Of a stretch of 64,000 bases of DNA, positions 1 through 62,900 are shown one piece after another. This DNA comes from a virus (Duplodnaviria; Heunggongvirae; Uroviricota; Caudoviricetes), in the IMG/VR virus record IMGVR_UViG_3300014204_000143; one strand, 5' to 3'. The notes beneath the pieces were generated by a model. It was not told where the DNA came from and did not search any database. It worked only from the letters and a program-made list of their open reading frames with translations. The position numbers and the translations under genes were made by a program. Numbering within the stretch: the first letter of the stretch is position 1; every line of letters begins with the position of its first letter.

Positions 1-414
1 TCGTCGACTAGTAGTTCAACTTCTTCGAGTACATCTAGTTCAACTTCATCGTCTACAAGTTCTTCAACTTCAAGTTCTACGTCTTCATCAACAAGTAGTT
101 CAACGTCTAGTTCTACTAGTAGCTCTACATCTTCATCAACTAGTAGTTCAACGTCTTCATCAACAAGTAGTTCTACCAGTTCTTCAACTTCAAGTTCAAC
201 AAGTTCTTCAACAAGTTCAACCTCTAGTTCGACAAGTAGTTCGACATCTAGTTCAACTAGTAGTTCTACGAGTTCGCTCCCAATAGAAATTGAAGACTGG
301 ATACCAAAGGCAGATATTGGAAAAAATACGTATCGAGGGAAAATACAAATAGATAGTTATGTAGGAAAAGGAGGTTATGAAAATATAAAAGCAGATTTAA
401 TAGATAGAATTTAA
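1..414 (+). CDS. C-terminal part of a Ser/Thr-rich (STSSS)n repeat protein; the 5' end lies outside the window
   Basis: Frame 1 is open from position 1 and reads STSSS repeats, then ...LPIEIEDWIPKADIGKNTYRGKIQIDSYVGKGGYENIKADLIDRI, ending at TAA 412-414. It resembles the C-terminus of the next gene. Confidence 0.55.
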   Translation, partial: SSTSSSTSSSTSSSTSSSTSSSTSSSTSSSTSSSTSSSTSSSTSSSTSSSTSSSTSSSTSSSTSSSTSSSTSSTSSSTSSSTSSSTSSSTSSLPIEIEDWIPKADIGKNTYRGKIQIDSYVGKGGYENIKADLIDRI

Positions 415-3276: not shown

Positions 3277-3379
3277 AGCTAGTTTATCCCGCTGGGTTAG
3301 CATTAGTTATTTACAACTAGTTTATCCCATTGGGTTGACGTTAGTTATTTATAACTAATGTTATAATTAATAAATAAAG
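3277..3379 (+). promoter_or_regulatory. Two tandem copies of a ~38-bp element (TTTATCCC-N3-TGGGTT-N4-TTAGTTAT) followed by an extended -10 (TGTTATAAT at 3359-3367), ~20 nt upstream of ATG 3388
   Basis: Seen directly. The same element plus TGTTATAAT recurs at 11933-11991, upstream of ATG 12017. Confidence 0.45.
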
Positions 3380-3387
3380 TAAAAAAA

Positions 3388-4790: not shown

Positions 4791-5234
4791 ATGGCAGGTA
4801 GTAAAACAAAAAACTCTCAACGACTTACAATTCAATACTTCGAAGGTGTCAACGCTCAGGTTGGAAATAACTTATCTAAAACAACCGAACTCAGGCACGT
4901 CGAAAACGCCAGAAGTAATAAAATTGGAATCATCGAGAAGCGGACTGGTAAAACTTTAACAGGAGATGATGTGGATACATTAAGTGTCTACTCCTTGTTT
5001 TATTTTGATAACGCTGGAGCAACAAATACGGGACTCTATATGGTGATAGATTTCAATAATAGTACAACCACCTCATCGACTTCTTCAAGCACTTCAAGTT
5101 CAACTACGTTTACAAGTTCAACAAGTAGTTCTACTTCGTCTAGTACGTCATCGAGCACGTCTAGTTCGACTACCTTTACAAGTTCAACTTCATCGTCAAC
5201 ATCTTCATCAACTAGTTCAACAACTACTTTATAA
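4791..5234 (+). CDS. Small structural-module protein with a C-terminal STSSS-repeat tail
   Basis: 147-aa ORF. The C-terminal ~50 aa are STSSS/TTFTSS repeats. Tightly coupled to its neighbours. Confidence 0.45.
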   Translation: MAGSKTKNSQRLTIQYFEGVNAQVGNNLSKTTELRHVENARSNKIGIIEKRTGKTLTGDDVDTLSVYSLFYFDNAGATNTGLYMVIDFNNSTTTSSTSSSTSSSTTFTSSTSSSTSSSTSSSTSSSTTFTSSTSSSTSSSTSSTTTL

Positions 5235-9700: not shown

Positions 9701-11708
9701 TAAAGGGCTATATACAGTAACTGGAATTGGAACAGATTATTTTGAAGTTGACAAAGTCGCAGGAACGGCAGAAAGTAAATATTGTTCAGGCATTTATTTA
9801 TATTCTAGTGTTATTGGTGATTCCACATCACAGTTTGATATTACCTGTCTTGATAGTGTTAAAAAAATATTTAGATATACCTGGGACGGGACTGGAACAG
9901 ACCCAAACATATTACAGTTGACTCATGGTGAGAATATCTATATAAAAGCACAAAATTTTTCTTCAGTGAATAATGGTCATTTTGTAATTTTAAATCCAAC
10001 ATCAACTACTTTTGATATTCATAATGAGATTGGAGTTGCAGAAAATAATAAAACAATTGGTACGGGATATATTATAAAAGTTAATACTTATCTTGGAGAC
10101 TCTTCAACTCAGTTTGATATAACAAATCCATCAACTGGACTGTGGAGATACACTTGGGACGGAACAGGAAAGAACCCACACATAGAAGAACTCGTATCTG
10201 TTTATGATACTATGTATATTAATGGTTCAACTTTTGCATCAAATAATAGGGGAAAAAGAGTTTATGTTTATGCCGTTGGAACTGATTATTTTGAAATTAA
10301 AACAGAGACAGGAACGGTTGAATCTAATAAAATTCTTGGAACTGGATATATTGAACACGTGAAAGGATATGTAATAAATAATTGGGGAGAAAAAACTGAA
10401 GTTAGCAATCTCAAATTTATAGAATCTGGAAACTATCGTTATGGTTGTTTGGTTTCTTTAAATAGCTTAAGTATTCATCATACCGATTTTGATACGCAAG
10501 AATCTCAAAGCTCTTTAATGCCATGTATAGTTGATAGGAGTGGTAGTCTAACATTAAAAAATTCTTATCTTATTAGTTATTCTAATTGTGTAGTTAGATT
10601 TCCCTACTCAGGGAATGAAACTGTTATAAGCGAAAATCATTTTGAATCTTATTATGGTTCAAGTGTTTATGAAACAATGACTTCATATAGAATAGGTGGA
10701 AGTTCTTCTAGATTTGATATAACTAATACTGCTGGAGATACATGGAGATATACATGGGATGGTACAGGGACTGACCCTGGAATATCTACTGGCTGGAGTT
10801 TTTATGCAGTTATTGTTTATGCTGAAAATTTTACAGGAAGAAATAATGGAATCTTTCAAATAACAGATTCTGGGCTTAATTGGTTTGAAGTTACAAACAT
10901 AAATGGATATGCAGAAAACAACAAAACAATTGGAGAAGGTTATATAGAAAAAATGATTTCTGGAGGTTTTTATAAGTTTGTTTTTGAAAAAAATTATTGT
11001 TATCGTGGTATGTATAATTCTTCCAGTAGTTATATTGCAAATATTCCAGGGGCATTAAATATTGTTGGAGACGGAACAGTTATAAGAGATAATACATTTT
11101 TTGCACAACCTTCAAATTATACTCCAGCAGTCAGACTATTTGGAGTTAATAGTATTGTCACTGGAAATAAATTTAATAGTTATCCTGAAAACTATTCTGC
11201 AAATGGTGGTCTTGGTATTCATATTACAGCCAAAGGCAGTTGTGTTATAGAGAATAATATATTTAATGCCCTAAGCATTGGAATTCTTTTAGATTATTAT
11301 GAAACAGACAATGGTTGTGGTCATGCATCTACAAGCAACAATCTGTTTAATTTTGTGGTTGGAGAAACTAATGGTTATGGTATATCAATTCTTTCCCCAA
11401 TTTCAAAAATGGTAATTTCTGGAAATCATCAATATTGTGGAGCTTCTTTAATTGACCAACAGTATGGTTCTTCTAATTTAACAGTAATAAATAATATTGT
11501 TACTAATTCTGCCGCAGAAGCCTTTTTAATGCAAAGTCTAACATATTCTGTCTTTAGTAATAATCAAACAAAAGATTGTTATCTTGGATATGACATTTCT
11601 GGAGCAGATTATTGTACGATTTTGGGCAATATATCTCAGGGTAACGCAAATTCAGATGACGTTGCTGGTATTACAAACAGCGAAACGGCTCACAATTTAT
11701 TCTTATAA
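6762..11708 (+). CDS. Giant tail fibre/tailspike. It has six ~95-aa repeat domains (9230-10956) and a C-terminal right-handed parallel beta-helix-like region (NNIFNALSIGIL..., ISGNHQYCG..., ~10960-11708).
   Basis: 1648-aa ORF. The internal motif FDITNP-x-GT-x-RYTWDGTG...NNG-F...GTDYFE...NKTIG-GY recurs six times. The C-terminal periodic motifs are typical of pectate-lyase-like tailspikes. Confidence 0.6.
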   Translation: MTQKNYNSIDNPYDSFLNRTDAGASTVVNSGQEYGGTTFTDSGNGGSASPNGSPDVSSPNDVSGGSIQGSSFQSIWLKDWIKSRNYKPKSVGFYIDGKTGYAEFVNVYVSGNIQALSGLIGGFTIGATNLSATSGGNTTIVSSGSTAFSAGPTGAPTFYVTQAGVLNATGAIISGTLTATTGYIGGWLINATNLSATGIILDSLNQQIKVGATDPIIIDGLLKEIESSNYVSGAFGAGFHLDSNLFEVGNISCRGMIRTSVFQKDLINVMGGSFVVLDGDILDTTMTALDTATITTKGTVNFSINDILRIKEDIDDEWFRVTNVSGHPTYVVTRDLAGMYPSNTNPCWTKGSTIVNYRQSGDGGVFMTATETDAPYLSIFDHAGSPWTTINTRLRLGNLNGFLGYSSDLYGIAIGETNSYLKYDTDNGLRIKGDITITGGNASVTFYESTEPVSGMKAGDYWVDSDDNSLHVYQGGVWVLVAASGVKVFSAEPTTPYHVGDLWASGVFLKICNHELLTGVYNPLDWSYATGYTDDTVANSKIKTFIQTTIPTSISAGDLWIDSDDGNKLYRATNAGDTTIGPTAWVVVPIDFANINGATKPENNATVGATWGTNLVNIPGTLGTPTGTGLFLSSTHLGFYDAPNWKTYMDSYGNFYLGGTSGKLQWVAGTNTLTITGIINADSGTIGGFTLGADYIRDSANGVGLASTVSGGDDVRFWAGDTFANRDIAPFRVYESGNVVMERITASNIQAYDAIVDINGGGDYYDLYGAVLNGAKKIFIRNGEYILTSQLDIAQENVKIEGQSRDKTIITRARGGNNIYFLLGDGTTQWDVTNPAGTTFRYTWNGQGYEPDFSKLKDGYNILIESSSGTSYLDYDNTGNFCITGTGTTYFEITNSSGVVETGKTIGLDDTSYIKIRPKAIYGYATGGGGGNLTEYTVTNPVGTTWRYTYTGVGGDPDITTRVKVGMLVDMIDSSFSTNNKGLYTVTGIGTDYFEVDKVAGTAESKYCSGIYLYSSVIGDSTSQFDITCLDSVKKIFRYTWDGTGTDPNILQLTHGENIYIKAQNFSSVNNGHFVILNPTSTTFDIHNEIGVAENNKTIGTGYIIKVNTYLGDSSTQFDITNPSTGLWRYTWDGTGKNPHIEELVSVYDTMYINGSTFASNNRGKRVYVYAVGTDYFEIKTETGTVESNKILGTGYIEHVKGYVINNWGEKTEVSNLKFIESGNYRYGCLVSLNSLSIHHTDFDTQESQSSLMPCIVDRSGSLTLKNSYLISYSNCVVRFPYSGNETVISENHFESYYGSSVYETMTSYRIGGSSSRFDITNTAGDTWRYTWDGTGTDPGISTGWSFYAVIVYAENFTGRNNGIFQITDSGLNWFEVTNINGYAENNKTIGEGYIEKMISGGFYKFVFEKNYCYRGMYNSSSSYIANIPGALNIVGDGTVIRDNTFFAQPSNYTPAVRLFGVNSIVTGNKFNSYPENYSANGGLGIHITAKGSCVIENNIFNALSIGILLDYYETDNGCGHASTSNNLFNFVVGETNGYGISILSPISKMVISGNHQYCGASLIDQQYGSSNLTVINNIVTNSAAEAFLMQSLTYSVFSNNQTKDCYLGYDISGADYCTILGNISQGNANSDDVAGITNSETAHNLFL

Positions 11709-11934: not shown

Positions 11935-11991
11935 TATAACTAATGTTATCCCCTTGGGTTGGCGTTAGTTATACATAACTAATGTTATAAT
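11933..11991 (+). promoter_or_regulatory. Single copy of the TTATCCC...TGGGTT...TTAGTTAT element plus extended -10 TGTTATAAT (11983-11991), upstream of ATG 12017
   Basis: Near-identical to 3316-3379. Palindromic arms ATAACTAA/TTAGTTAT flank the element. Confidence 0.45.
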
Positions 11992-12016
11992 TAACATATA
12001 AAGATAAATAAAATTT

Positions 12017-31144: not shown

Positions 31145-31831
31145 CTATTTAGTTTTTTCTTCTTCCAATAATCCGTCACAAACTTCAGTCTTGAAGTCTG
31201 TTCCATATTTGTTTAATAACCAACCAAGAAATACTTTTTGTCCATCTTCAGTAAGAATACCGTCGCCGTTAGTGATTTCTAATTTTCTAAATGTTTTTTC
31301 AGGTTCTTTTAGAAATGCCTGAACAAATTTCTCTTTGATGTTCATAGTTTTATTATTTAATTGATTTATAATTTCTATTCTTCCACAATATCCTTCTGCT
31401 CCCCATTCACCATTAGCATGACCTTTATTTATATCCCACCCACATCCATAACCTGGAATATTTTTACCACGACCTATTTTACCGTCATCTCTTTTAATTG
31501 TTGCAATATCTCCTTCAATGTCAAAAACAGTTCCAGTATATGTTCCACCAGCATTATAAATTCCTTTTATTCTATCACCTACTTTTAATGTTATTTTTTC
31601 AAATTGTTCATCTGCATATTCAAGATATGACCAAGAGCAAGAAGCAGCTCTTCTACTACTATCAACTTTACCAGTTTCTGCAAAATAAAAACATGGGTTA
31701 CTTGTATTGTCATCTAGATAAAGTTTTACTACATCACCCCTTTTAAATGGTTCACAAACACTAACTATAACACGGAACTTTCTATTTACATCAATTCCTA
31801 ATTCTGTAGCTGTTTTATTTGGTTCAAACAT
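31145..31831 (-). CDS. Hypothetical protein whose N-terminal domain is paralogous to ORF 40031..40987
   Basis: MFEPNKTATELGIDVNRKFRVIV here versus NTFEPNKTATELGIDLTRKFRVVV in the 318-aa ORF. Confidence 0.45.
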   Translation of the reverse strand: MFEPNKTATELGIDVNRKFRVIVSVCEPFKRGDVVKLYLDDNTSNPCFYFAETGKVDSSRRAASCSWSYLEYADEQFEKITLKVGDRIKGIYNAGGTYTGTVFDIEGDIATIKRDDGKIGRGKNIPGYGCGWDINKGHANGEWGAEGYCGRIEIINQLNNKTMNIKEKFVQAFLKEPEKTFRKLEITNGDGILTEDGQKVFLGWLLNKYGTDFKTEVCDGLLEEEKTK

Positions 31832-31858: not shown

Positions 31859-31906
31859 AGTTTAACATACTAAAAACACCTTGTCAAGTAGTAAACTGTG
31901 GACAAC
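31859..31906 (-). promoter_or_regulatory. Sigma70-like promoter on the minus strand (TTGACA-17 nt-TAAACT) with an upstream TTGTCCACA (DnaA-box-like) site, driving ORF 31145..31831
   Basis: Reverse complement of 31859-31887 reads TTGACAAGGTGTTTTTAGTATGTTAAACT. The element is near-identical to 47029-47076 and, inverted, to 47451-47497. Confidence 0.5.
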
Positions 31907-32619
31907 TATTTTCCAGCAACCAAATTACCAGCCCTTAAAAGTGAATTAAATGTTCCTGCATCAGTCCACCATCCCCCCAATACATGACTCCCCATAGATC
32001 CATTTTTAACAAAGTAATTATTAACATCGGTAATTTCTAATTCACCTCTGCCTGATGGTTTTAGCGTTTTGATTACATCCCATACTTCTTTGTTGTAGAA
32101 ATATAAACCAGTGACAGCTAAATTACTTTTTGGGTCTTCTGGTTTTTCTTCAATACAGACAACTTTGCCATCTTCATTTATCTCAGCTACTCCGAATCTT
32201 TGTGGGTCATCAACTATCTTTAAAAAAATATTGGCGGAGTCGGATGTGCTTTGAAAATTTCTAACAAACCCAGCAATGTCATCCTCATAAATGTTATCCC
32301 CAAGAATAACAGCGACATCTTCGTCTCCAGCAAAACGCTCACACAGTCCCAACGCTTCTGCAATCCCTCCAGCCTCTTCTTGAACCTCATAAGAAAACTT
32401 AGCACCGAATGATTTACCAGAACCAAGCAAGTCTAAAAAGTTACCAGCGTTCCCCTTACCAGAAACAATCATGATTTCATTTATCCCTGACTTTGTTAGA
32501 GTTTCGATTGGATAATAAATCATCGGTTTGTCATACACTGGCAGTAAATGCTTGTTAAAAATACGAGTGCATTCACCCAGCCTACTACCAGTCCCTCCTG
32601 CGAGAATAATTCCCTTCAT
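31906..32619 (-). CDS. rmlA: Glucose-1-phosphate thymidylyltransferase (RmlA-like sugar nucleotidyltransferase, short form)
   Basis: MKGIILAGGTGSRL...LLPVYDKPMIYYPIETL..., ...EEKP..PKSNLAVTGLYFY and ...GELEITD.. match the RmlA family along the whole length. Confidence 0.8.
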   Translation of the reverse strand: MKGIILAGGTGSRLGECTRIFNKHLLPVYDKPMIYYPIETLTKSGINEIMIVSGKGNAGNFLDLLGSGKSFGAKFSYEVQEEAGGIAEALGLCERFAGDEDVAVILGDNIYEDDIAGFVRNFQSTSDSANIFLKIVDDPQRFGVAEINEDGKVVCIEEKPEDPKSNLAVTGLYFYNKEVWDVIKTLKPSGRGELEITDVNNYFVKNGSMGSHVLGGWWTDAGTFNSLLRAGNLVAGK

Positions 32620-35519: not shown

Positions 35520-35747
35520 TTATAATTTATTTAAATCAATGTCGTCTAGCTTGACTCCGAGTTTAATAAAGTGTCTAATTTTTTTTACACGTTCATAGTC
35601 CTTAATCCTATCAAACACATAATTAAGTCCGATAATTGATTTTGGTAGTAAGAGTCCCATTCTAACATAAATCTTAATCCTCTCAGAAGACACTCCACAT
35701 TTTTTTGCTAATTCTTTAGTTGTCATGCAGTCATCAACATCTAACAT
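35520..35747 (-). CDS. Small HTH DNA-binding protein
   Basis: MTTKELAKKCGVSSERIKIYVRMGLL is an HTH of the MerR / excisionase-like type. Confidence 0.4.
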   Translation of the reverse strand: MLDVDDCMTTKELAKKCGVSSERIKIYVRMGLLLPKSIIGLNYVFDRIKDYERVKKIRHFIKLGVKLDDIDLNKL

Positions 35748-43025: not shown

Positions 43026-43032
43026 TTTATTT

Positions 43033-43080
43033 CTTAGATGGCTATTTACCATCGGTTAATTTATTATTTTATCAGCGATT
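43033..43080 (-). promoter_or_regulatory. Family-D element copy 1 (TTAACCGATGGTAAATAGCCATCTAAG... on the minus strand), ending 8 nt before ATG 43025
   Basis: One of four copies at 43033, 43365, 43501 and 44009. Contains the palindrome GATGG-N7-CCATC. Confidence 0.45.
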
Positions 43081-43358
43081 TTTAATAATCTTTCGATTTC
43101 TTGCTCTGATTGTTTTATGTTTTGTTTTTCTTGTTCGATCCCTTCAAATATTTCATTGGGGGACATATAATCAGCAAAGTCATTTTTTATCACGCACCTT
43201 GGGGAGGGTGGGTTGATAATCTGGTGAGGTGCGTAATTTTTGTTATATTCTTTCCAAGATGTCTTAAAGTCGCAACGAGCACATTCAGCAACTAAACTAT
43301 GTAGGATTATATGATAACCACATCTGGGACATTCACCACTTTTTAGTTCTTCTTTCAT
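43056..43358 (-). CDS. Small Zn-ribbon / coiled-coil protein, paralogue of 44032..44229
   Basis: CPRCGY...CARC, and C-terminal IERLLKIADKIIN versus IEKLLSIADKIIN in the paralogue. Confidence 0.4.
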   Translation of the reverse strand: MKEELKSGECPRCGYHIILHSLVAECARCDFKTSWKEYNKNYAPHQIINPPSPRCVIKNDFADYMSPNEIFEGIEQEKQNIKQSEQEIERLLKIADKIIN

Positions 43359-43364
43359 ATATTT

Positions 43365-43380
43365 CTTAGATGGCTATTTA
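43365..43380 (-). promoter_or_regulatory. Family-D element copy 2 (truncated: TAAATAGCCATCTAAGAAATAT), ending 6 nt before ATG 43358
   Basis: Lacks the left palindrome arm but keeps the ATG-proximal core. Confidence 0.4.
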
Positions 43381-43494: not shown

Positions 43495-43500
43495 AATGTT

Positions 43501-43525
43501 TTAGATGGCTATTTACCATCGGTTA
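43501..43525 (-). promoter_or_regulatory. Family-D element copy 3
   Basis: TAACCGATGGTAAATAGCCATCTAAAACATT on the minus strand, then ATG at 43494. Confidence 0.4.
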
Positions 43526-43526
43526 G

Positions 43527-43739
43527 TTAATAAATTGAATAAGGTTTATCTTTATTTCCCCAACCTTTAGGGAAGTTTAACCTTTCTTGTTTAATTTTTT
43601 CTTTCAATTCGTCTTTCCATCTTTTCTCAATATAGCCAAGCATTTCATCTCTAGTGAGCCAATCTGTAGTATAAGCATCAACTACCGTAGACCATTGACG
43701 ATATTTATTATCTTTTTTTCTAAATTTTATACATCTCAT
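43527..43739 (-). CDS. Hypothetical small protein
   Basis: 70-aa ORF. Confidence 0.3.
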   Translation of the reverse strand: MRCIKFRKKDNKYRQWSTVVDAYTTDWLTRDEMLGYIEKRWKDELKEKIKQERLNFPKGWGNKDKPYSIY

Positions 43740-43743
43740 ATAT

Positions 43744-44004
43744 TTATTCTTTAATTAGTTCTTTTAATTTTGATGAAATGGTGTCTATTAATTCCTCTCT
43801 GGTGTTAAATTCGTGAACATTTATATCTTTAATTTCTTCCACAATCATCTTTATAAGTGAGATTTGGCGAGAGGAGATGAATTGTTTAAGATTTTTTCTA
43901 ATTGTTTCGTGTCCTTGTGATTCTGCATCTAATTCATAATCAGGGAATCTATCCTCAAATTCCTTCTTACCTTCCTCTATAAAGTTTTTAATTTTTTCTT
44001 CCAT
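43744..44004 (-). CDS. Hypothetical small protein (start moved to MEEKIKNF)
   Basis: The annotated MVNSHLRY prefix is repeat-derived. The true ATG at 44004 lies 5 nt after element copy 4. Confidence 0.4.
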   Translation of the reverse strand: MEEKIKNFIEEGKKEFEDRFPDYELDAESQGHETIRKNLKQFISSRQISLIKMIVEEIKDINVHEFNTREELIDTISSKLKELIKE

Positions 44005-44008
44005 ATAT

Positions 44009-44065
44009 CTTAGATGGCTATTTACCATCGGTTAATTTATTATTTTATCAGCGATTGATAATAAT
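44009..44065 (-). promoter_or_regulatory. Family-D element copy 4 (extended ~57 bp, identical to copy 1, including the 3' end of the upstream paralogous gene)
   Basis: cttagatggctatttaccatcggttaatttattattttatcagcgatt is shared with 43033-43080. Confidence 0.45.
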
Positions 44066-44229
44066 TTCTCGATTTCTTGATTGGCGGTATCAATTTTCCA
44101 TTTCTCAAGAGTGATTGCCGAATAAATCTCATTGGGCGATTTACAATCACTTTTATTATAAGTAATCTGCTTATCTCTATCTTCTAGATTGATATTGCTA
44201 TATTTTTGGTAAAATTCGTGAAGTTTCAT
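44032..44229 (-). CDS. Small coiled-coil protein, paralogue of 43056..43358
   Basis: C-terminal EIEKLLSIADKIIN. Confidence 0.4.
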   Translation of the reverse strand: MKLHEFYQKYSNINLEDRDKQITYNKSDCKSPNEIYSAITLEKWKIDTANQEIEKLLSIADKIIN

Positions 44230-45340: not shown

Positions 45341-45429
45341 TGGAGGTCTTGGTTGGGAGTCGAACCCAAATACCTTGTATGTGGCTGTTCCTAACCACTA
45401 CGCTCTATCCAAATTGAGCTACCAAGACC
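45341..45429 (-). tRNA. tRNA gene (isotype unresolved, possibly His-like with a G-1 nucleotide). The anticodon region is unusually long.
   Basis: Reverse complement reads G-GTCTTGG TA GCTC AATTTGGATA GAGC ... TTGGG TTCGACT CCCAA CCAAGAC C. There is a perfect 7-bp acceptor stem, a canonical D-arm and a TPsiC arm (GGGTTCGACTCCC). The segment between the D-arm and T-arm is ~9 nt longer than standard. Confidence 0.6.
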
Positions 45430-45465: not shown

Positions 45466-45750
45466 TTATAACTCGATTCTATTTCGTAAATCATCAATAA
45501 TATCATTTATTCTTTCAACGAAATCAATATCTTTTTGGATTTCCTCAGCTAATTTACATTCTCTTACTCCTCTGTCTTCGTGGACATCTTTTAGTGTTTC
45601 TGATGTCAAAACACTTGATAATTGTAATGTCAAAGAAGCAACATTTTCATCTAATCTCTGGAGTTCTTTATCAAAATTTGACATTACTTTTTTGATTTCT
45701 GGTGTTTTGCCAATTTCCTGACCTGTGAAAGTTTGTTCAAAATTTTTCAT
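45466..45750 (-). CDS. Hypothetical protein preceded by a family-C element
   Basis: 94-aa ORF. Element copy at 45758-45787. Confidence 0.35.
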   Translation of the reverse strand: MKNFEQTFTGQEIGKTPEIKKVMSNFDKELQRLDENVASLTLQLSSVLTSETLKDVHEDRGVRECKLAEEIQKDIDFVERINDIIDDLRNRIEL

Positions 45751-45757
45751 ATTTTTT

Positions 45758-45787
45758 TATTTATCCCCTACTTAAATTTGAGAGGCT
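45758..45787 (-). promoter_or_regulatory. Family-C element copy 1 (TTTATCCCCTACTTAAATTTGAGAGGC, degenerate hairpin)
   Basis: Matches 60065-60097 and 60629-60660. Lies 8 nt upstream of ATG 45750. Confidence 0.4.
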
Positions 45788-45825
45788 ATTTTACTATTTT
45801 AATTTTTTGACCGACCATATAAATT

Positions 45826-46521
45826 TTACATACTAATAAATCTACCTAATTTATTTCTTTTTGAATTATATTTTTTAGAAAACACCTTATCTAAGTCTAA
45901 ACATTTTAGTATTCTATATCTAGCTGTTTCATACGGTATATTATATTTTTTTACCCAATACATAAGAGGTTTAGTTATTCCTTTATATGTTATTAGATTA
46001 TTGCATCTTTTATTACTTGCCTGTTCGCTCATTGTTACCCATTGACAATTTTTTTTAGAATAATTACCACTATTATCAATTCTATCTATAGACGTTTTCC
46101 TATCTCCATATTTTTTGGAATGCTTTGTATAACTTTCATACATATCATTTTTAAATTCTTCAAAGTTTTTCCACTCACATTTTATATTCCGTCCACCATA
46201 ATTTTTATAAGATATTGAATTTTTATTACAGGTTCTTGATTTTATAGCATACCATATATTATAAAATCTAGTCTTAGACATATTATGTTTTTTCCATTTG
46301 TATTTTAAACATCCACAACTTTTAGTATTTCCATTTATAAGATATGCTGTCTTTACTATTGCTTTATTTCCACAATCACACTTACAAACCCAATACGCAT
46401 TTCTGTTTTTTATGTGTGAAAATTTTATTGCTGTTAATTTATTAAATTTTTTTCCAGTAATATTTTTAATATTTTTATTCATATTCTTGTTCTTTTTTAT
46501 CTCTAAACAATATCCCCTCAC
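45826..46521 (-). CDS. Cys-rich protein with an HNH_3-like homing-endonuclease signature
   Basis: CKCDCGN...CGC at the N-terminus; ...SIDRIDNSGNYSKKNCQWVTMSEQASNK resembles the H-N-N motif of phage HNH_3 endonucleases. Confidence 0.4.
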   Translation of the reverse strand: MRGYCLEIKKNKNMNKNIKNITGKKFNKLTAIKFSHIKNRNAYWVCKCDCGNKAIVKTAYLINGNTKSCGCLKYKWKKHNMSKTRFYNIWYAIKSRTCNKNSISYKNYGGRNIKCEWKNFEEFKNDMYESYTKHSKKYGDRKTSIDRIDNSGNYSKKNCQWVTMSEQASNKRCNNLITYKGITKPLMYWVKKYNIPYETARYRILKCLDLDKVFSKKYNSKRNKLGRFISM

Positions 46522-46625: not shown

Positions 46626-47003
46626 TTAAAATATTTTTTCTAAAATTACTCTTATCCAATATGACATAAAATATGCACGAAGTTCAGTATCGTCTTTTCC
46701 TAAATCTCTAGCTTTTATCATATTGTCTAAATAATGTTGTAACTCGTGACATAAATAAGCAATACTTTGTGGAGATTTATCAAAGGTTTTTATCCAAATA
46801 AGATTATTATGTTTTCCATTATTATCAACAATAGAAAAACATTGTCCCTGTATATTCTCCCATGAATAAGGAACTACAAACTCCATATCTTTTCTGCCAC
46901 TTTCTTTTTTAAATATTTTAACTATTTCGTCAGCGTGACAATTTATTATAAGATGTAATGAATTTTCAAATAAATCTTTTTCAAAATAATAATAATTTTT
47001 CAT
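46626..47003 (-). CDS. Small HExxH-motif protein (putative Zn-metallopeptidase-like, ImmA/IrrE or SprT-like)
   Basis: LCHELQHYLD contains HExxH. It is the first gene behind promoter copy B2. Confidence 0.35.
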   Translation of the reverse strand: MKNYYYFEKDLFENSLHLIINCHADEIVKIFKKESGRKDMEFVVPYSWENIQGQCFSIVDNNGKHNNLIWIKTFDKSPQSIAYLCHELQHYLDNMIKARDLGKDDTELRAYFMSYWIRVILEKIF

Positions 47004-47028
47004 AAAACTTTGTTAATAACCTATAAAC

Positions 47029-47076
47029 AGTTTAACATACTAAAAACACCTTGTCAAGTGGTAATCTGTGGATAAC
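47029..47076 (-). promoter_or_regulatory. Sigma70-like promoter on the minus strand (TTGACA-17-TAAACT) with an exact DnaA-box 9-mer (TTATCCACA, seen as ctgtggataa on plus) 10 nt upstream of the -35
   Basis: Reverse complement: GTTATCCACAGATTACCACTTGACAAGGTGTTTTTAGTATGTTAAACT. Drives 46626..47003. Confidence 0.55.
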
Positions 47077-47136
47077 TTATAAATCAATTAGTTAAAAACG
47101 AATGTTATACTTAAATTATAATTAAATAAAATCAAA

Positions 47137-47418
47137 ATGGAACAAAATCTTTACAGCACTAGAGACTTAATTGAGGCCGCCTCCTTAATCGCTCTAAAAT
47201 TTCCCATGGTAAATATCGACTACCAGTCAGAAGACACAAAACTTGTCGGTTACTTCGTTTTTGAAGATAGTCCAGAATTACAAGAAATGGTTATCAAATC
47301 TTTATCAAAGCAATTAGCCTTTGAGCCGAGAGAATTTAATAGTATTATTAAAAGTCTCAAAGCTCAATTAGCCAATACAAAAAAAAGTCCGAGTAGTAAA
47401 TATTCGGGGAGCTACTAA
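47137..47418 (+). CDS. Hypothetical protein (first plus-strand gene after the divergence point)
   Basis: 93-aa ORF. Confidence 0.35.
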   Translation: MEQNLYSTRDLIEAASLIALKFPMVNIDYQSEDTKLVGYFVFEDSPELQEMVIKSLSKQLAFEPREFNSIIKSLKAQLANTKKSPSSKYSGSY

Positions 47419-47450
47419 GAAACTCTTTAGTTTTTTTTATTACGTTTGAC

Positions 47451-47497
47451 TTATCCACAGGACATATCTTGACAAGGTGTTTTTGTTGTAGTATAAT
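47451..47497 (+). promoter_or_regulatory. Consensus sigma70 promoter (TTGACA 47469-47474, 17-nt spacer, TATAAT 47492-47497) with an exact DnaA box TTATCCACA (47451-47459) upstream. It drives the tRNA-like locus.
   Basis: Seen directly: ttatccacag gacatatc TTGACA aggtgtttttgttgtag TATAAT. Confidence 0.6.
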
Positions 47498-47643
47498 GGT
47501 AGTGATTTCTTCGAAATCAAAAAAACTATTTCAGTAATCATCCAGTTCTCATACTTCTGGATGGTTATAGTGGGTTAGAAAAGTAGCAATTCGCAAGCCC
47601 CATAAGCTTGAGACACAGGTGCAAATCCTGTACCCGCCACCAA

Positions 47644-47736
47644 GCCACTTAGTAGTTTAATGGTAGAAAAACCAGAGGAAAAACACCCAGCGTAAGCTCG
47701 TGGAGATTGTTGGTTCGAGTCCAACTAGTGGCCCCA
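47644..47736 (+). tRNA. tRNA-like gene (~93 nt incl. encoded CCA). It has a canonical T-arm and acceptor stem, with a long D/anticodon/variable region (type II tRNA, or one carrying an insert).
   Basis: 5' GCCACTT pairs with 3' TAGTGGC (6/7). T-arm GTTGG TTCGAGT CCAAC is canonical, then discriminator C and CCA. The D-loop region AGTTTAATGGTAG contains the conserved GG. The anticodon stem could not be folded confidently by eye. Confidence 0.45.
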
Positions 47737-48772: not shown

Positions 48773-49912
48773 ATGGAAAACGAAATTGAAATTGAAAAAG
48801 ATTTAAAAGGAGGAATAGACGACCTTATCGATAATATTGTTATAAATACTCGTCAGAATATTGACATGTTCTTATTAGAAGAAAAACCAGCAGAATTAAT
48901 GGCTCTATATGATTTTTATTATTATACTGCCAAGTGGCAAAAAACTAATCAACCAAGGGCAACAATTAGTTATGTTATGAAAGGTTTAAAATGGGGAGAA
49001 ACAAAAGTTAGAAAAAATAAAAAAATATTAATAAGATTAGGGCTAATAAGAGATTTTAGAGCTGTAGATAAAAAAACTGGAAAAATAAATGGCTGGTATA
49101 TAAAAGTTTGTTATATTTGGAGTAAAGAAAACCTATTAAATAGAATAAAAACCACCCTCTCAAAAATCCAACAGGTGGTTTACGAGGGGACAAATGCTTT
49201 AAGTGATTCTAATTTAAATGCTTTAAGTGATTCTGTAAATTTTCAGAACAACGCCGATTTAGCAGTACCCAACGTTTCTCCTAGTTCAACCTCGGAAGAA
49301 AATTTACCTTCACCTTCTTATAAGTGGGGTTTAAACTCGGCTAGTGCTACTTCTGCTGTTCCTGCTCCTCAACAAGATAATACTCCTCAACTTTCTTCTA
49401 CTACAACTTCTCAACATACGTCTATTCAACTATGCAGTCCAGTTAAACCTTCTTCAAAACAAGACTCTCTAGCTAAAAAGCCTCTAGCCTCATCGAAAAA
49501 TCCACCAAAAATTTTTTCAACCGAGGAAATCGAACGCTTCAAAAAGCTTCGTGCCGAAGAAGTCCAATGCTTCAACCTCGTCAGGCAGGACTTAACACCA
49601 TCACTAGAAACCCAGAAGTCACCAATTTACGACCCGACATTTGATTTTAATAGAGAAATGTTAAAGTTAGAGAATGACAAACAGGTACACGTTCGGATTA
49701 TTGCTTTGTTTTGGTATGCCAAGGGGACAACTTTTGAAAACGAAGGACAGTATAAAGCCCAATTTAGACGTTTGCTAAAGGGGGCTAGTCAACTAAAGCA
49801 CTACTCTTTCGATAAAATATTGAAAGCAATGGTGAGTGCTAGCGAAGAAAGTAAAAAAGTTGGTTATGACTGGGGACTTGAAACAGCGATTAAAAAGATT
49901 GATAAGGTCTAA
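48773..49912 (+). CDS. Hypothetical protein with N- and C-terminal globular parts separated by an S/T/P-rich disordered linker. Possibly a replication-initiation or DNA-binding protein.
   Basis: 379-aa ORF with a winged-helix-like N-terminus (KGLKWGETKVRKNKKILIRLGLIRDFR). No firm motif. Confidence 0.25.
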   Translation: MENEIEIEKDLKGGIDDLIDNIVINTRQNIDMFLLEEKPAELMALYDFYYYTAKWQKTNQPRATISYVMKGLKWGETKVRKNKKILIRLGLIRDFRAVDKKTGKINGWYIKVCYIWSKENLLNRIKTTLSKIQQVVYEGTNALSDSNLNALSDSVNFQNNADLAVPNVSPSSTSEENLPSPSYKWGLNSASATSAVPAPQQDNTPQLSSTTTSQHTSIQLCSPVKPSSKQDSLAKKPLASSKNPPKIFSTEEIERFKKLRAEEVQCFNLVRQDLTPSLETQKSPIYDPTFDFNREMLKLENDKQVHVRIIALFWYAKGTTFENEGQYKAQFRRLLKGASQLKHYSFDKILKAMVSASEESKKVGYDWGLETAIKKIDKV

Positions 49913-51127: not shown

Positions 51128-52132
51128 ATGCGAAAATTAGTAACAGTTCAAAAGGTATTAGAAAAAAAATCAATAGAAGGAGCCGATAGAATTGAGGCAG
51201 TAAGGATTAATGGTTGGTGGGTAGTGACACAAAAAGACCAATTTAAAGTTGGCGAGTATTGTATTTATTTTGAGGTGGATTCGTTTTTGCCAATTAAACC
51301 AGAATTTGAATTTCTTTTAAATGGTAAGTCGCCTAAAAAAATGCTATACAAAGGAAAAGAAGTTGAGGGTATTAGGTTGAAAACAATTAAGTTAAAAGGA
51401 CAGCTGAGCCAGGGCTTAGTAATGCCAATTACCGAAACGATGATAATAAAAGAAATTGATGAAGATTTGTCAGATTATTTTGGAGTTATATTATACGAAC
51501 AACCAGTCCCACCACAACTTCAAGGATATGCTAAGGGCAATTTTCCAGGATTTATTCCAAAGACTGATGAAGAAAGAATACAAAATATGACGGAAATTTT
51601 TAATAATTATGTCGCCACAGAAAAGATTGATGGCACTTCTGCAACATATTATAAAAAAGACGGGGTATTTGGGGTTTGTAGTAGAAATTTAGAATTAGTT
51701 AAAGGGGAAAGTATTTATTGGAGAATCGCAGAAAAATATAATTTAGAAAATATAATTCCAGACGGGTTATGTTTTCAGGGGGAAATAATAGGAGAGGGTA
51801 TTCAAGGAAATCCTTTAAAGCAAACTGGTCAAGATATTTATTTTTTCAATGTCTATAATATTGAAAGCAATACTTATTTAGATTTTGATGAATTTCTAAA
51901 TATTTGTGAAAAATTAAATCTTAAAACTGTTCCAATTATAAATGACAATTTTTCTTTGCCAAAAAATGTTGATGATATGTTATGGTTTGCAGAAGGGTTT
52001 GCAGAAGGAAAAAGTTTATTGAATCCAAACGTAGAACGAGAAGGCGTTGTCGTCAGAAGTAAAAACAAAATAAATGGCGAAAGGATTTCTTTTAAAGCCA
52101 TTTCAAATACTTATTTATTAAATGAAAAATAA
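51128..52132 (+). CDS. ATP-dependent RNA ligase (Rnl2/DRB0094-like nucleotidyltransferase)
   Basis: Ligase motif I ATEKIDGTSATYY (KxDG), ...FQGEIIGEGIQGN and motif IV-like EGVVVRS. Confidence 0.6.
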   Translation: MRKLVTVQKVLEKKSIEGADRIEAVRINGWWVVTQKDQFKVGEYCIYFEVDSFLPIKPEFEFLLNGKSPKKMLYKGKEVEGIRLKTIKLKGQLSQGLVMPITETMIIKEIDEDLSDYFGVILYEQPVPPQLQGYAKGNFPGFIPKTDEERIQNMTEIFNNYVATEKIDGTSATYYKKDGVFGVCSRNLELVKGESIYWRIAEKYNLENIIPDGLCFQGEIIGEGIQGNPLKQTGQDIYFFNVYNIESNTYLDFDEFLNICEKLNLKTVPIINDNFSLPKNVDDMLWFAEGFAEGKSLLNPNVEREGVVVRSKNKINGERISFKAISNTYLLNEK

Positions 52133-59266: not shown

Positions 59267-60056
59267 TTGGAATCATTTGTCCTGGTAATTTTCCGTCCCA
59301 TTTTTCGATAGACTTTAGTGCTACATAGTCTGCACCACCTTGACTGCTAATAGCCTGTGCCTGAATTTTGATTGCTTCGGCTTCACCTTTTGCTTGAGCT
59401 ATTCTCTGTTCCGCTTCATATTTACTTTGTTCTAGTTTATTTTTAGCCGCCAAAGCATCTTGTTCGGCAGTTACCTTTGCTTCGATAGCCTTGTTAAAAG
59501 ATTCTGAAAAATCAAAATTGATGATGTTGACTTGGTCAATAATAATTCCATAAGGTATCATTTTTTCTGAAAGAGTTGTTTTAATTTCGTCTCTGACAAC
59601 CTCTCGCTTAGTGATAAGCTCTTCGGCAGTATATTTTGATGTTGCCGCCTTAACGCTTTCTTGTAATGCTGGGTCAATTAGTCTTGACTTATAATCGATA
59701 CCAACTGATTTATAAATTGATAAAGCATAGTCAGGACTAAGATTAAAATTGACTGCTAATTTAGAACTGACAGTCTGTAAATCTTTGCTAGCCGCACTTG
59801 CCTCGACTTCGTCTTTTTGAACTTTAACGTCCATTTTAACAATTTTTTCAATATAAGGAACTTTTAAATTAAATCCCTCACCGACCGTTGAAATAGCCGC
59901 CCCAAATCTAACCCTAACACCTCTTTCGCCAGCATTAACGATTGACCACGAGCCAAATAAAACTGGTAACAACACAAAGAAAAATATTATAGTTGACATA
60001 ATAATTCTGCCAACGTAAACTTTTCCATCCCTTTCACTCACAAAAAAATTTTTCAT
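59232..60056 (-). CDS. SPFH/Band-7 (prohibitin/HflC-like) membrane protein
   Basis: N-terminal TM helix, then ...VNAGERGVRVRFGA...GFNLKVPYIEKIVKMDVKVQ... and a long Ala/Glu/Gln-rich coiled coil, typical of the SPFH domain. Confidence 0.75.
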   Translation of the reverse strand: MKNFFVSERDGKVYVGRIIMSTIIFFFVLLPVLFGSWSIVNAGERGVRVRFGAAISTVGEGFNLKVPYIEKIVKMDVKVQKDEVEASAASKDLQTVSSKLAVNFNLSPDYALSIYKSVGIDYKSRLIDPALQESVKAATSKYTAEELITKREVVRDEIKTTLSEKMIPYGIIIDQVNIINFDFSESFNKAIEAKVTAEQDALAAKNKLEQSKYEAEQRIAQAKGEAEAIKIQAQAISSQGGADYVALKSIEKWDGKLPGQMIPNATLPFINLTK

Positions 60057-60064
60057 AGTTTTAT

Positions 60065-60097
60065 TTTATCCCCTACTTAAATTTGAGGGGTTAATTT
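60065..60097 (-). promoter_or_regulatory. Family-C element copy 2 (TTTATCCCCTACTTAAATTTGAGGGGTTAATTT), 8 nt upstream of ATG 60056
   Basis: Perfect 5-bp inverted repeat CCCCT/AGGGG with an 11-nt loop. Confidence 0.45.
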
Positions 60098-60364
60098 ATA
60101 ATAGTCATTTTTTTTATCCCAAAGATATAATCCTTGTGGCATGGTAAATTTTTTACCAAGAGAAATATTTCCACTTTTCATTGAAAAACTTTCTCCTTTT
60201 TCAATTTTTATGAGGTTTAATTTTTCATCAAAAAACAAATCAATTCTATCTGAGTTTATTATTTTTTGTGAAGCCAACGATATTGAGATATTCACTATCT
60301 TTTCTCTCTGTATAACTCTAATCCCAAAATAATGTGTTCTTTTATTTATAAATTTTTTAAACAT
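60077..60364 (-). CDS. Hypothetical protein
   Basis: 95-aa ORF. Confidence 0.3.
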   Translation of the reverse strand: MFKKFINKRTHYFGIRVIQREKIVNISISLASQKIINSDRIDLFFDEKLNLIKIEKGESFSMKSGNISLGKKFTMPQGLYLWDKKNDYYKLTPQI

Positions 60365-60368
60365 AGAA

Positions 60369-60620
60369 TTAAAATTTAAGTTTACAATTTTTTATATGGC
60401 TTACTAAACTAACTGGATAAAATTTTATACCTTTATCCCACTCAACAAATTTAGTATCAGCCATTCTAGTAAAACAATCAAGGCAAATAAGGTTTTCTCG
60501 CTGACTTATGTGGGTAACTAATTCCCATATTTTTTTAGGAACCAAGAAATCAATTGAATATTCTCTATGGCAAAGTGAACATATTTGTCTGTGTGGTTTA
60601 CGTTCATCAGATTTTTTCAT
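60369..60620 (-). CDS. Small Zn-finger protein
   Basis: CSLCHREY...CLDCF. Confidence 0.3.
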   Translation of the reverse strand: MKKSDERKPHRQICSLCHREYSIDFLVPKKIWELVTHISQRENLICLDCFTRMADTKFVEWDKGIKFYPVSLVSHIKNCKLKF

Positions 60621-60628
60621 GTTTTTTA

Positions 60629-60660
60629 TTTATCCCCTACTTAAATTTGAGGGGTTAATT
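60629..60660 (-). promoter_or_regulatory. Family-C element copy 3, 8 nt upstream of ATG 60620
   Basis: Identical core to copy 2. Confidence 0.45.
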
Positions 60661-61099
60661 TTTTATTTGATAAATATCTTTTTTGATTAGCAATGATTCT
60701 GGTTGCGTTTTCTTTGTAGTAGCACTTGACACATAGTCCATTTCCTTTGTGTTTTCTTTTGACAGTTCCACATTTTTTACACTTTTTGTATCTTATAGAC
60801 CAAACTAGTTTTGAATTTATTATACACTCTTTTGAGCAAAATGAATAGGTGTTACTTTTTTCTTTCTGATAAAGTTTTCCACAAAGTTTGCAGGTGTAAT
60901 ATTTTCTTTCACGTTTGATATTCAAGTCTTTTGTGATTAAAAATATTCGCTGTTTTGAAAGACTAAACATATCCCCAATCATCTGTAACGATTTTCCCCT
61001 CGAACGTATAAGTCTTATTTTAGCGTCTCTCTCGGAATTATCAACGACTTGGTTATTTTTTAACCCCTGAATTTTTAGTTTTACTTCTTCTTCTGTCAT
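60641..61099 (-). CDS. Sigma-70 region-4-like HTH protein with C-terminal Cys-rich Zn ribbons (putative transcription regulator)
   Basis: GKSLQMIGDMFSLSKQRIFLITKDL resembles sigma region 4.2; then CKLCGK...CSKEC...CKKCG...CVKC. Confidence 0.4.
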   Translation of the reverse strand: MTEEEVKLKIQGLKNNQVVDNSERDAKIRLIRSRGKSLQMIGDMFSLSKQRIFLITKDLNIKRERKYYTCKLCGKLYQKEKSNTYSFCSKECIINSKLVWSIRYKKCKKCGTVKRKHKGNGLCVKCYYKENATRIIANQKRYLSNKKLTPQI

Positions 61100-61520: not shown

Positions 61521-62900
61521 TTATCCTTTAATCACACCCAAAGGGCTTAATTCTACTAATATCTCAACTAAATCTTTTTGATTTTCCATCACGTCTTTGA
61601 TATTTTTATATGAACTTGTTGCCTCGTCTAAATCATCAGCAGTTCTAATTCCGTGGACAATTCCTTGGTCTTCTAATATTTTAATTTCATTTTCTAAGTT
61701 AAGGCTTTTTATTGCTTGTCCTCGTCCCATACATCTACCAGCTCCGTGCGAGCAAGAATTAAAACTTTCTGGATTACCTTTTCCTTTTACAATATAAGAA
61801 TTAGAACCCATTGACCCAGGGATTATTCCGATTGTGTCTTCTGTGGCAAGTGTCGCTCCTTTCCTATGAACCATTACATTTGTTCCAAAATGATTTTCCA
61901 TTCGAGCGTAATTGTGAGCGATGTTTATCATTGGCTCTGTTTTAAATCTTTTTGTTCCTTTATATACTAAATTTTTATACTCTTCTACACTTTTTTCCCC
62001 TCTTTTTTTTAGTTCGTCTAGAACTTTTTTGTCCGTAAATTCCCAATTACATCTTGCACATTTTGGATATTGACTGATAGCAAGTAACTTGTAACCACAT
62101 TTAGGACAACCGTCTCTATATATTTTTTCAAGTCTATCGCATTCATCAATAACTGAATTAAACTGTTTATTAAAGATGTTAATAATTCTCTCCATCATCA
62201 ACTTTCTATTAGCCAAAGCAAACTCAACACAATAATTCATTTCTCTAATATATGCTTTACCCTCTTCGCTATCAATTGGTAAAAAAGCTAAGTCAAATTC
62301 TTTAGGAACTTCACTGTGCCATTTTTCGTTTAATTCTTTAGCTATTTTATTATAATGGTCAGCTACTTGTTTTCCTAAATTTCTTGAACCACTATGAATC
62401 ATAATCCAAATATGTCCGTCAGAACCTTTTTGAATTTCGATGAAGTGATTGCCACCGCCAAGAGTTCCAATAGATAAACAAGCATTGTTAAACTCTTGAT
62501 TACAGATTTTTAAATCATCTGACAATTCTGGCATTAATCTGCTTTGATAAGACTCGTATTCTTTATGTTTATTGAACCCAACAGGAATAGCCCTTCTAAT
62601 TTCACCAATTATTTTTTTAAGGGTATCTTTGTCTAATTCAGTTAAAGAAGTCTTAACTGCACAAAGCCCGCACCCAGCGTCTGACCCGACCATTGACGGA
62701 CAGACTACACCTTTTAATGCAACCACTCCTCCAATAGGCATTCCAAATTTAGAGCAATGACAATCTAGCATTATTGCTACGTGGTGAAATGCAAATGGTA
62801 ATTTTACTAGATTATCAATTTGTGTCATAGCACTTTCTTCTATTTCTGGACACCAACTAAAAACTGGGATTTTGTTTTTTTCTTTTTTAAATTTTTTCAT
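61521..62900 (-). CDS. rtcB: RtcB-family RNA ligase (3'-phosphate/5'-OH) with an inserted CxxC zinc ribbon
   Basis: CPSMVGSDAGCG, GGNHFIEIQ, HSGSRNLG and SCSHGAGRCMGRGQA are RtcB core motifs. CPKCGYKLLAISQYPKCARC is an insert. Confidence 0.8.
   Translation of the reverse strand: MKKFKKEKNKIPVFSWCPEIEESAMTQIDNLVKLPFAFHHVAIMLDCHCSKFGMPIGGVVALKGVVCPSMVGSDAGCGLCAVKTSLTELDKDTLKKIIGEIRRAIPVGFNKHKEYESYQSRLMPELSDDLKICNQEFNNACLSIGTLGGGNHFIEIQKGSDGHIWIMIHSGSRNLGKQVADHYNKIAKELNEKWHSEVPKEFDLAFLPIDSEEGKAYIREMNYCVEFALANRKLMMERIINIFNKQFNSVIDECDRLEKIYRDGCPKCGYKLLAISQYPKCARCNWEFTDKKVLDELKKRGEKSVEEYKNLVYKGTKRFKTEPMINIAHNYARMENHFGTNVMVHRKGATLATEDTIGIIPGSMGSNSYIVKGKGNPESFNSCSHGAGRCMGRGQAIKSLNLENEIKILEDQGIVHGIRTADDLDEATSSYKNIKDVMENQKDLVEILVELSPLGVIKG

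Follow-up and report, generated by a model that had tools for sequence, protein, structure and literature searches.

Sigma70-type phage promoters carrying a single predicted DnaA box at a fixed upstream position recur in many unrelated viral contigs

In a 64,000-nucleotide (nt) stretch of DNA from an uncultivated phage (Caudoviricetes; IMG/VR record IMGVR_UViG_3300014204_000143; hereafter, the window), a short promoter-like element occurs three times. We read the three copies as strong host sigma70-type promoters, each with one predicted DnaA box near position -49, from which DnaA would assist the polymerase; we regard this reading as about evenly poised between right and wrong. That host DnaA is the ligand of the box is, judging from the sequence, probable. 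The promoter class is widespread among phages and apparently undescribed; a literature search found no account of this layout, although its coverage was incomplete and such an absence is not proof. The window has a guanine-plus-cytosine (GC) content of about 31% and covers most of ENA contig ERZ27247350:k141_1632479 (92,733 bp; 64 kb out of about 93 kb) in reverse orientation; adjoining sequence was taken from the same contig.

The copies lie at 31859-31906 (copy 1, minus strand), 47029-47076 (copy 2, minus strand) and 47451-47497 (copy 3, plus strand), where the original prediction had placed them, and have the same order of box, 8 nt, -35 hexamer, 17 nt and -10 hexamer. In copy 3 the box TTATCCACA (47451-47459) is followed by a G, 8 nt, the -35 (47469-47474), 17 nt and the -10 TATAAT (47492-47497); both hexamers match the promoter consensus (12/12), and transcription would start near 47504. 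Copy 2 opens with AGTTATCCACAG, which holds the same exact box (47067-47075), and continues with 8 nt, the -35 (47052-47057), 17 nt and the -10 TAAACT (47029-47034). Copy 1 consists of the box TTGTCCACA (31897-31905), a G, 8 nt, the -35 TTGACA (31882-31887), a 17-nt spacer starting with AGGTGTTTTT, and the extended -10 TGTTAAACT, whose hexamer TAAACT occupies 31859-31864. The distance from the 9-mer to the -35 is 9 nt in each copy (the G and 8 variable nt). The -35 is an exact TTGACA and the spacer is 17 nt in 3/3 copies, the -10 fits TAnAnT, and copies 1 and 2 have TG at -15/-14 ahead of TAAACT. All three therefore show the hexamers, spacing (17 ± 1 nt), non-coding location and gene-facing direction of sigma70-type promoters, and the boxes and the perfect TTGACA-17-TATAAT of copy 3 are as first described.

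The 16-mer TTGACAAGGTGTTTTT has 3 exact occurrences in the window and, at ≤3 mismatches, 7 matches versus 2.6 expected. Copies 1 and 2 are identical at 45/48 positions, and copies 2 and 3 form an inverted repeat of 34 nt, 82% complementary and 375 nt apart. The near identity of copies 1 and 2 and the exact 16-mer common to all three would fit paralogous duplication of one promoter cassette, with the box as a functionless passenger. We consider this highly improbable, since the 8 nt between the box and the -35 have changed and the box has not. Between copies 2 and 3, the box with its G (10/10) and the -35 with 10 further nt (16/16) are kept, whereas the variable 8 nt (2/8), the next 7 nt (2/7) and the -10 (4/6) have diverged. 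This block-wise identity points to constraint rather than recent duplication. The architecture also recurs with unrelated spacers in 92 clusters of viral sites and at the orthologous sites of relatives, as described below.

The exact 9-mer is found only twice in the 64 kb, both times at the same offset from TTGACAAGGTGTTTTT; promoter coupling, not 9-mer abundance, is the significant feature. The original prediction had recommended a search for further copies, and none was convincing in the window and 6.6 kb of adjoining contig, where a relaxed scan gave 12 matches versus a shuffle mean of 8.1. Motifs of the form TTATCCCC at 3322, 11946, 45761 and 50315 were considered as degenerate boxes and rejected, being halves of CCCC...GGGG hairpins or promoterless.

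Outside the window, the layout was first seen in the 32.8-kb contig of an unrelated phage (L069), which carries taaatagTTATCCCCAGtttcaccacTTGACA-17-TATAAT. The pattern AGTTATCCNCAG-N8/9-TTGACA was then found at 118 loci in IMG/VR. The flanks and spacers of these sites are mutually unrelated, an A-rich tract precedes the box, and a -10 signal stands at the right distance (T 55%, A 63%, T 61%). The free position of the box is A in 87% (N8) and 97% (N9) of the sites. Box-promoters in other phages precede portal genes and further ordinary genes, and the phages that bear them have almost no proteins in common. The box is almost always single, with a second one within 70 nt upstream at 1-3 of 96 sites; a second box 12 nt upstream was not found as a general feature. 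The 12-mer AGTTATCCACAG also occurs in other viral contigs in 12-bp tandem arrays, which are typical of DnaA sites. The 16-mer TTGACAAGGTGTTTTT searched alone gave 60 single IMG/VR matches, none with a box, and these were dismissed as chance; TCCACAG-N8-TTGACAAGGTG had no match in IMG/VR.

The box always reads 5'-TTATCCACA-3' on the non-template strand, ends 8-10 bp before the -35 and is centered near -49. The forward pattern AGTTATCCACAG-N8/9-TTGACA yielded 108 matches that collapsed into 92 independent clusters, 82 of which had TAnnnT at 16-18 nt. As a control, the reverse-complemented box at the same spacing yielded 74 matches in 25 clusters (one family contributed 31 matches), and TAnnnT followed in 5/25. 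Of 131 promoter-like sites in these loci that were chosen without regard to the box (TTGACA-16..18-TAnnnT), 15 had a forward box with ≤1 mismatch that ended 8, 9 or 10 nt ahead of the -35, and reverse boxes around the same 131 sites showed no preferred position. Among the unselected sites with an exact box, the -35 was exact TTGACA in 11 versus 5/6 variants in 6. A separate set of more than 30 near-identical viral contigs with 47-50% GC (IMG/VR L340-L412, e.g., L359, L363 and L373) contains CTGTGGATAACT-N8-TTGACAggcttgctaccatccagctctgcaagcgagcg, a conserved reverse-orientation DnaA box beside TTGACA.

When any gap from 0 to 30 nt was allowed between the box and TTGACA, at least 120 loci were returned, and the spacing series rests on the matches listed. 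Among these, sites with a -10 had gaps of N7 (7/7 clusters), N8/9 (17 loci), N16-20 (17 clusters) and N27 (3 clusters), and the troughs between them were nearly empty (N10-15, 2; N21-26, 1). Among the matches listed, the spectrum thus has peaks at about 8, 18 and 27 nt, a period of about 10 bp. Such a period suggests contact from one face of the helix, and one face and one orientation (82 versus 5 clusters with a -10) are what class I-type promoters display.

Some of the box-bearing contigs belong to distant relatives of the window phage. In the 89-kb contig L194, aacTTATCCACAgcttagcacTTGACA-17-TATAAT stands before a gene for a 124-amino-acid (aa) protein, which is followed by a homologue of a 163-aa window protein, SbcD (41% identity) and SbcC. 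This is the position of copy 1, and the operon proteins are 29-41% identical to those of the window. Homologues of the 93-aa protein encoded between copies 2 and 3 (44-66% identity) occupy the strand-switch position in all relatives found. The ortholog of copy 2 in L413, AAGTTATCCACAGttacccacTTGACA-17-TACCAT, drives an array of five tRNAs and has a second box head-to-tail 3 nt upstream, a typical DnaA arrangement. The ortholog of copy 3 in L415-L418, cacTTATCCACAggtgaagacTTGACA-17-TAGGCT, directly follows the 93-aa homologue, and these contigs have an internal leftward copy as well. The exact box is kept at the orthologous sites of L413, L415-L418 and L194, and the intervening sequence differs in all of them. 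The proposal of a coupled operator-promoter thus gains good support from the same orientation and spacing in about 90 independent viral contigs and from the orthologous positions in distant relatives. Searches for a cultured-phage relative and for a host of the window phage turned up neither, and a search with its 379-aa initiator found no close relatives, only the shuffled N-terminal domain common to small phages; it was this search that led to L069. Lactococcus phage 38502 shares the initiator domain and lacks the box-promoter motif.

As the standard for a DnaA box we used TTATCCACA or TT(A/T)TNCACA, which copies 2 and 3 match exactly. With its flanks, the box of copy 2 (AGTTATCCACAG) agrees at 12/12 positions with box R4 of Escherichia coli oriC, a sequence that matched >5,000 genomes. 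Among consensus DnaA boxes, TTATCCACA is the best binder (PMC5835720), and we regard the box as a predicted high-affinity R-type DnaA site. The DnaA-box-like character noted at first inspection is upheld by the universal consensus, the R4 match, the preference for A at the free position and the tandem pair in L413, all of which point to DnaA.

The binder is better sought in the host than in the phage, because box-bearing phages share almost no proteins. A phage-encoded DnaA mimic had been offered as one possibility. It found no support in Pfam scans of 60 window proteins, which revealed no DnaA-like domain among the families listed (25/29 of the weak ones), and the neighboring 93-aa protein appears from its structural model to have no DNA-binding fold. 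We rejected a phage-encoded box binder on these grounds.

The 10-mer might instead not be a DnaA site, but an UP-like element of the polymerase of some host clade, or a site for a small regulator, with a coincidental match to DnaA. Its place is that of an UP element contacted by the C-terminal domain of the polymerase alpha subunit, and an A-rich tract lies upstream. Outside viruses, the box-promoter pattern in metagenomes and genomes was mostly a coincidence of coding sequence or repeat families, such as the C terminus of an IS630 transposase (L089). Real-looking chromosomal promoters were seen only in L074/L094 and L109 (from a metagenome-assembled genome [MAG] of "Candidatus Staskawiczbacteria"), which are AT-rich bacterial fragments; they head small non-coding RNAs, and this similarity would suit an element of the host's own polymerase. 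They hint at the host clade and are too few to name a host. Nonetheless, we hold a chance resemblance to be distinctly unlikely: a 12/12 match to R4 and the universal consensus would have had to be chosen by coincidence in about 90 lineages, the 12-mer forms tandem 12-bp arrays elsewhere and a 3-nt-spaced pair in L413, and a small phage regulator fits poorly with phages that have almost no proteins in common and a 93-aa neighbor modeled without a DNA-binding fold.

Short terminator-ended non-coding RNAs or tRNA arrays follow several box-promoters (L413, 8115-8531 and 9220-9395; L415, 5320-5465; L109, ~3995-4045; L074, 3660-4040). Rfam identified only tRNAs among the RNAs downstream of the chromosomal promoters and those of the relatives.

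The tight binding of DnaA to consensus R-type boxes does not depend on which nucleotide DnaA carries (PMC5835720). Host DnaA would therefore be expected on the box from the moment of phage DNA entry. From that helix face it could touch RNA polymerase, either at sigma region 4 or at the C-terminal domain of the alpha subunit. Most likely, the contact would aid polymerase recruitment or open-complex formation and so create very strong promoters independent of the host species, which would be used for tRNAs, for the first transcripts in either direction, and for replication and recombination operons. DnaA contacts RNA polymerase and stimulates the lambda pR promoter, according to references cited in PMC3985674. 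The strict orientation, the gap of 8-10 nt and the further positions one or two helical turns away argue for polymerase contact and not for a steric block or titration. A bolder version, in which many uncultivated phages use DnaA as a position-specific transcription co-factor, bound at all times to a box at about -49 (or -59, -69) of a host-independent super-promoter for early genes, tRNAs and replication operons, or in which the unit doubles as a transcription-primed, DnaA-assisted origin, is possible but in our view doubtful.

The main rival to activation is repression or throttling of the promoters by DnaA, or a box that mainly soaks up DnaA to stop host initiation, with polymerase and DnaA stabilizing each other. 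Repression is the usual way in which consensus promoters are controlled, and many phage copies with several R-type boxes each would titrate DnaA. The E. coli mioC promoter offers a precedent: it has a strong box (TTTTCCACAgg) ahead of the -35 that points the same way with respect to transcription, is repressed by DnaA, and titrates about eight DnaA monomers (PMC5835720). However, by our own reading of its sequence, the mioC box lies only ~2 nt from the -35 and is accompanied by several weaker boxes, whereas the phage box is single and 8-10 nt away. The mioC promoter is also chromosomal and has a weak -35, in contrast to the consensus -35 and -10 of the phage promoters, and no helical periodicity of spacing has been described for it. 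An abutting box with extra sites, the arrangement of repressed promoters of the mioC/dnaA type, is not what the window contains, where the gap to the -35 is 9 nt. At oriC, it is the TT end of a box from which DnaA filaments extend, and growth in that direction would lead away from these promoters. Neither steric repression nor titration predicts a strict orientation and ~10-bp periodic spacing; titration, proposed in the original prediction, leaves the fixed orientation and spacing unexplained. It is also hard to see how an always-occupied box that lowers early expression would be selected in about 90 lineages. We therefore judge repression or titration unlikely.

Several observations weigh against activation by DnaA. 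Consensus core promoters usually need no activator, and the core here already has a consensus -35 and a near-consensus -10 instead of the sub-optimal elements of an activated promoter. In E. coli, the closest counterpart is mioC, whose box points the same way, and DnaA represses it. DnaA itself is named from sequence, and copy 1 departs from the strict TT(A/T)TNCACA consensus by a G as the third base of its box (TTGTCCACA). Counted alone at ≤1 mismatch, the 9-mer is not enriched in the window (25 matches versus 22.2 ± 4.5 expected); a frequency no higher than chance was the outcome named beforehand as telling against the element, and what survives of that test is the coupling of both exact copies to promoters. 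TTGACA and the 12-mer were held constant in the searches, which in part accounts for the -35 looking so strong, and the helical period comes from the matches listed in the free-gap search. Among the relatives, L415 has at the copy 2 position a good TTGACA-17-TAGAAT promoter without a box, and at the copy 3 position of L413 a hairpin contains TTATCCCCA at a distance of 22 nt. A box need not be present at orthologous positions.

Promoters controlled by DnaA are a known kind; the new aspects are the breadth and the geometry in about 90 independent phage lineages. The dnaA p1/p2 region of E. coli likewise has a consensus box that controls transcription (PMC5835720), but that box is inverted (cCTGTGGATAAat) and tens of bp upstream of p2, and repression requires DnaA-ATP and extra sites. 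T5-like phages also have conserved consensus DnaA boxes in a lytic genome, away from the origin and proposed to bind host DnaA (bioRxiv 10.1101/866236). Their eight boxes, however, form pairs 3 bp apart in the inverted repeats of the first-step-transfer DNA, are proposed to stop injection, and are not coupled to promoters (bioRxiv 10.1101/866236). Class I promoters, such as those with CRP at -61.5, -71.5 or -82.5, resemble the phage class in the fixed orientation and in allowed positions about one helical turn apart upstream of the -35. They differ in that their core elements are normally poor; in the phage class the proposed activator would be a replication initiator, at predicted positions of about -49, -59 and -69.

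Among phage systems, lambda offers a likeness. Lambda pR is assisted by host DnaA (references in PMC3985674), and its transcript crosses the initiator gene in which the origin lies. In the window, copy 3 is arranged likewise with respect to the initiator gene and the repeats inside it, and transcription from copy 3 would pass through the likely origin much as transcription from pR does. The DnaA sites of lambda are weak, deviate from the consensus and follow the promoters (two lie downstream of pO; PMC3985674), whereas each promoter of the phage class has one consensus box, placed upstream at a set distance, and the class also heads operons unrelated to replication.

The initiator-like gene of the window (48773-49912, plus strand), transcribed from copy 3, encodes the 379-aa protein with a DnaD/replisome-organizer N-terminal domain. 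Its linker contains exact 19-nt direct repeats, AAATGCTTTAAGTGATTCT, at 49192-49210 and 49216-49234 (24-nt period), adjoined by the inverted repeat AAACCACC...GGTGGTTT at ~49149-49180; a Ser/Thr/Pro/Gln-rich stretch follows. The segment 49149-49234 is a candidate lambda-style iteron origin, and more likely to be the origin than copies 2 and 3.

The alternative is that box and promoter together form a transcription-primed origin, in which DNA opening or an R-loop would let DnaA load the helicase, as at promoter-dependent T4 origins or the R1-DNA unwinding element (DUE) arrangement of oriC. In oriC the DUE is on the ACA side of R1, and the unwound -10 region has the same placement relative to the phage box. 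Copies 2 and 3 stand at the strand switch, beside the replication module, where the cumulative GC-skew reaches its minimum, and four boxes with ≤1 mismatch fall within 46790-47459, compared with ~0.26 expected per 670 bp. Two of these boxes are in coding region, however, and the skew minimum is confounded by gene orientation. The phage has its own initiator, helicase and primase, besides the iteron-like repeat and hairpin in the initiator gene. An AT-rich unwinding element, which the original prediction suggested looking for near copies 2 and 3, did not appear: GC content dips to 15-17% at 46.4-47.05 kb, with no discrete repeat-type element and nothing distinct from the general 17-25% GC of intergenic DNA. 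Copy 1 and many outside instances head ordinary operons, including portal genes. Given the better candidate in the initiator gene and the same promoter type before portal genes, an origin role for the copies is improbable. Of the related suggestion of early promoters near an origin, one part stands, as copies 2 and 3 lie on either side of where the replication module begins; copy 1, which heads a nuclease operon 15 kb away, does not fit it.

The three promoters of the window serve different gene blocks. Copy 1 fills a 74-nt gap after the stop codon of an RmlA-like gene (31906-32619) and before a 228-aa gene (31145-31831), and heads an operon for the 228-aa protein, the 163-aa protein, an exonuclease, SbcD, and, further on, SbcC. 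Copy 2 is the first promoter of the leftward block, which comprises a 125-aa gene (46626-47003), an HNH endonuclease gene, tRNA-Pro and many small genes. From copy 3, the first product is tRNA-Met (CAT anticodon; 47569-47642, plus strand), 72 nt downstream; a tRNA-like sequence follows (47646-47731, plus strand; weak at 22 bits, below the Rfam threshold), and then the rightward replication module. Copies 2 and 3 diverge from the switch between minus- and plus-strand genes, as had been claimed for them, but the 93-aa open reading frame (47137-47418, plus strand) lies between. This frame has its own extended -10, TGTTATACT, at ~47105-47113 and a weak match to DUF5659. The AlphaFold model of its product (predicted local distance difference test score, 77) has a beta-alpha-beta-beta-alpha-alpha fold, with no significant fold match in PDB and no helix-turn-helix in the model.

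The spacer sequence AGGTGTTTTT is identical in 3/3 copies and is not conserved in other phages. It may thus be a second, phage-specific control site (an operator) or a determinant of promoter strength. Its motif AAGGTGTTTT occurs 5 times in the window versus 0.54 expected. One occurrence is in a possible fourth promoter at 45865-45893 (minus strand), with TAGATA, a spacer of AGGTGTTTTC..., and TATAAT at 17-nt spacing; it has no DnaA box and lies within the HNH endonuclease gene, at the 3' end.

That gene is adjoined by tRNA-Pro(AGG), 89 nt long (45341-45429, minus strand). Genes for an RNA ligase and RtcB (51128-52132 and 61521-62900) suggest tRNA repair or processing. Other window genes code for GroEL, GroES, an RmlA-like nucleotidyltransferase, the SbcCD nuclease, peptide deformylase and thioredoxin; for replication there are a DnaB-like helicase, a primase zinc-ribbon protein and the 379-aa protein, and the structural proteins include an SU10-type adaptor. 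Shine-Dalgarno sequences are essentially absent from the whole window, and A/T-rich leaders such as TTAATTAAATAAAA precede the start codons. The AT-rich MAG fragment L074 has leaders of the same style.

Two hairpin families were seen near gene starts. The hairpin CCCCT-ACTTAAATTTG-AGGGG occurs in three copies (45739-45808, 60044-60113 and 60608-60677), 13-14 nt ahead of minus-strand start codons, and may be an element of the 5' untranslated region, a processing site or a terminator. Repeats with the hairpin GATGG-CTATTTA-CCATC (43028-43103, 43360-43380, 43495-43570 and 44004-44079) span the starts of small paralogous early genes. Coding repeats were also found: long 12-nt-periodic Ser/Thr-rich ones (1-300, 2330-3200 and 5060-5225) in the gene for a 951-aa protein (420-3275) and in its neighbors, and ~90-nt modules in the 466-aa and 1648-aa structural proteins (3746-3978 and 9241-10934).

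A pair of 87%-identical repeats lies just upstream of structural genes (3322-3388 and 11946-12012, plus strand). Each has TTGACG or TTGGCG, a 21-nt spacer with a perfect 8+8 palindrome (TTAGTTAT..ATAACTAA), and then TGTTATAAT. An over-long spacer with an internal dyad is the layout of MerR-type promoters. The phage encodes a 75-aa protein with a MerR_1 helix-turn-helix (35520-35747, minus strand), as do L413 and L415, and the repeat pair may act as a late-gene switch.

A few chromosomal genes are known to have a DnaA box at the promoter, mostly as a repressive site, and the help that DnaA gives lambda pR is a special case. The proposal of a DnaA-assisted promoter can be tested with DnaA and RNA polymerase of E. 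coli or Bacillus subtilis, because box and core are both canonical; TTATGGACA is the box-mutant counterpart of TTATCCACA. Either form of the bolder version, the co-factor or the origin, would, if true, amount to a general and so far undescribed role of DnaA in phage gene expression. If DnaA does bind the box, phages have repeatedly recruited the one protein whose DNA recognition hardly differs from one bacterium to another. The design would then be a portable promoter for synthetic biology and phage engineering, and its signature a simple one for early promoters in the genomes of uncultivated phages. Binding would also mean that early expression in these phages is tied to the replication machinery of the host.

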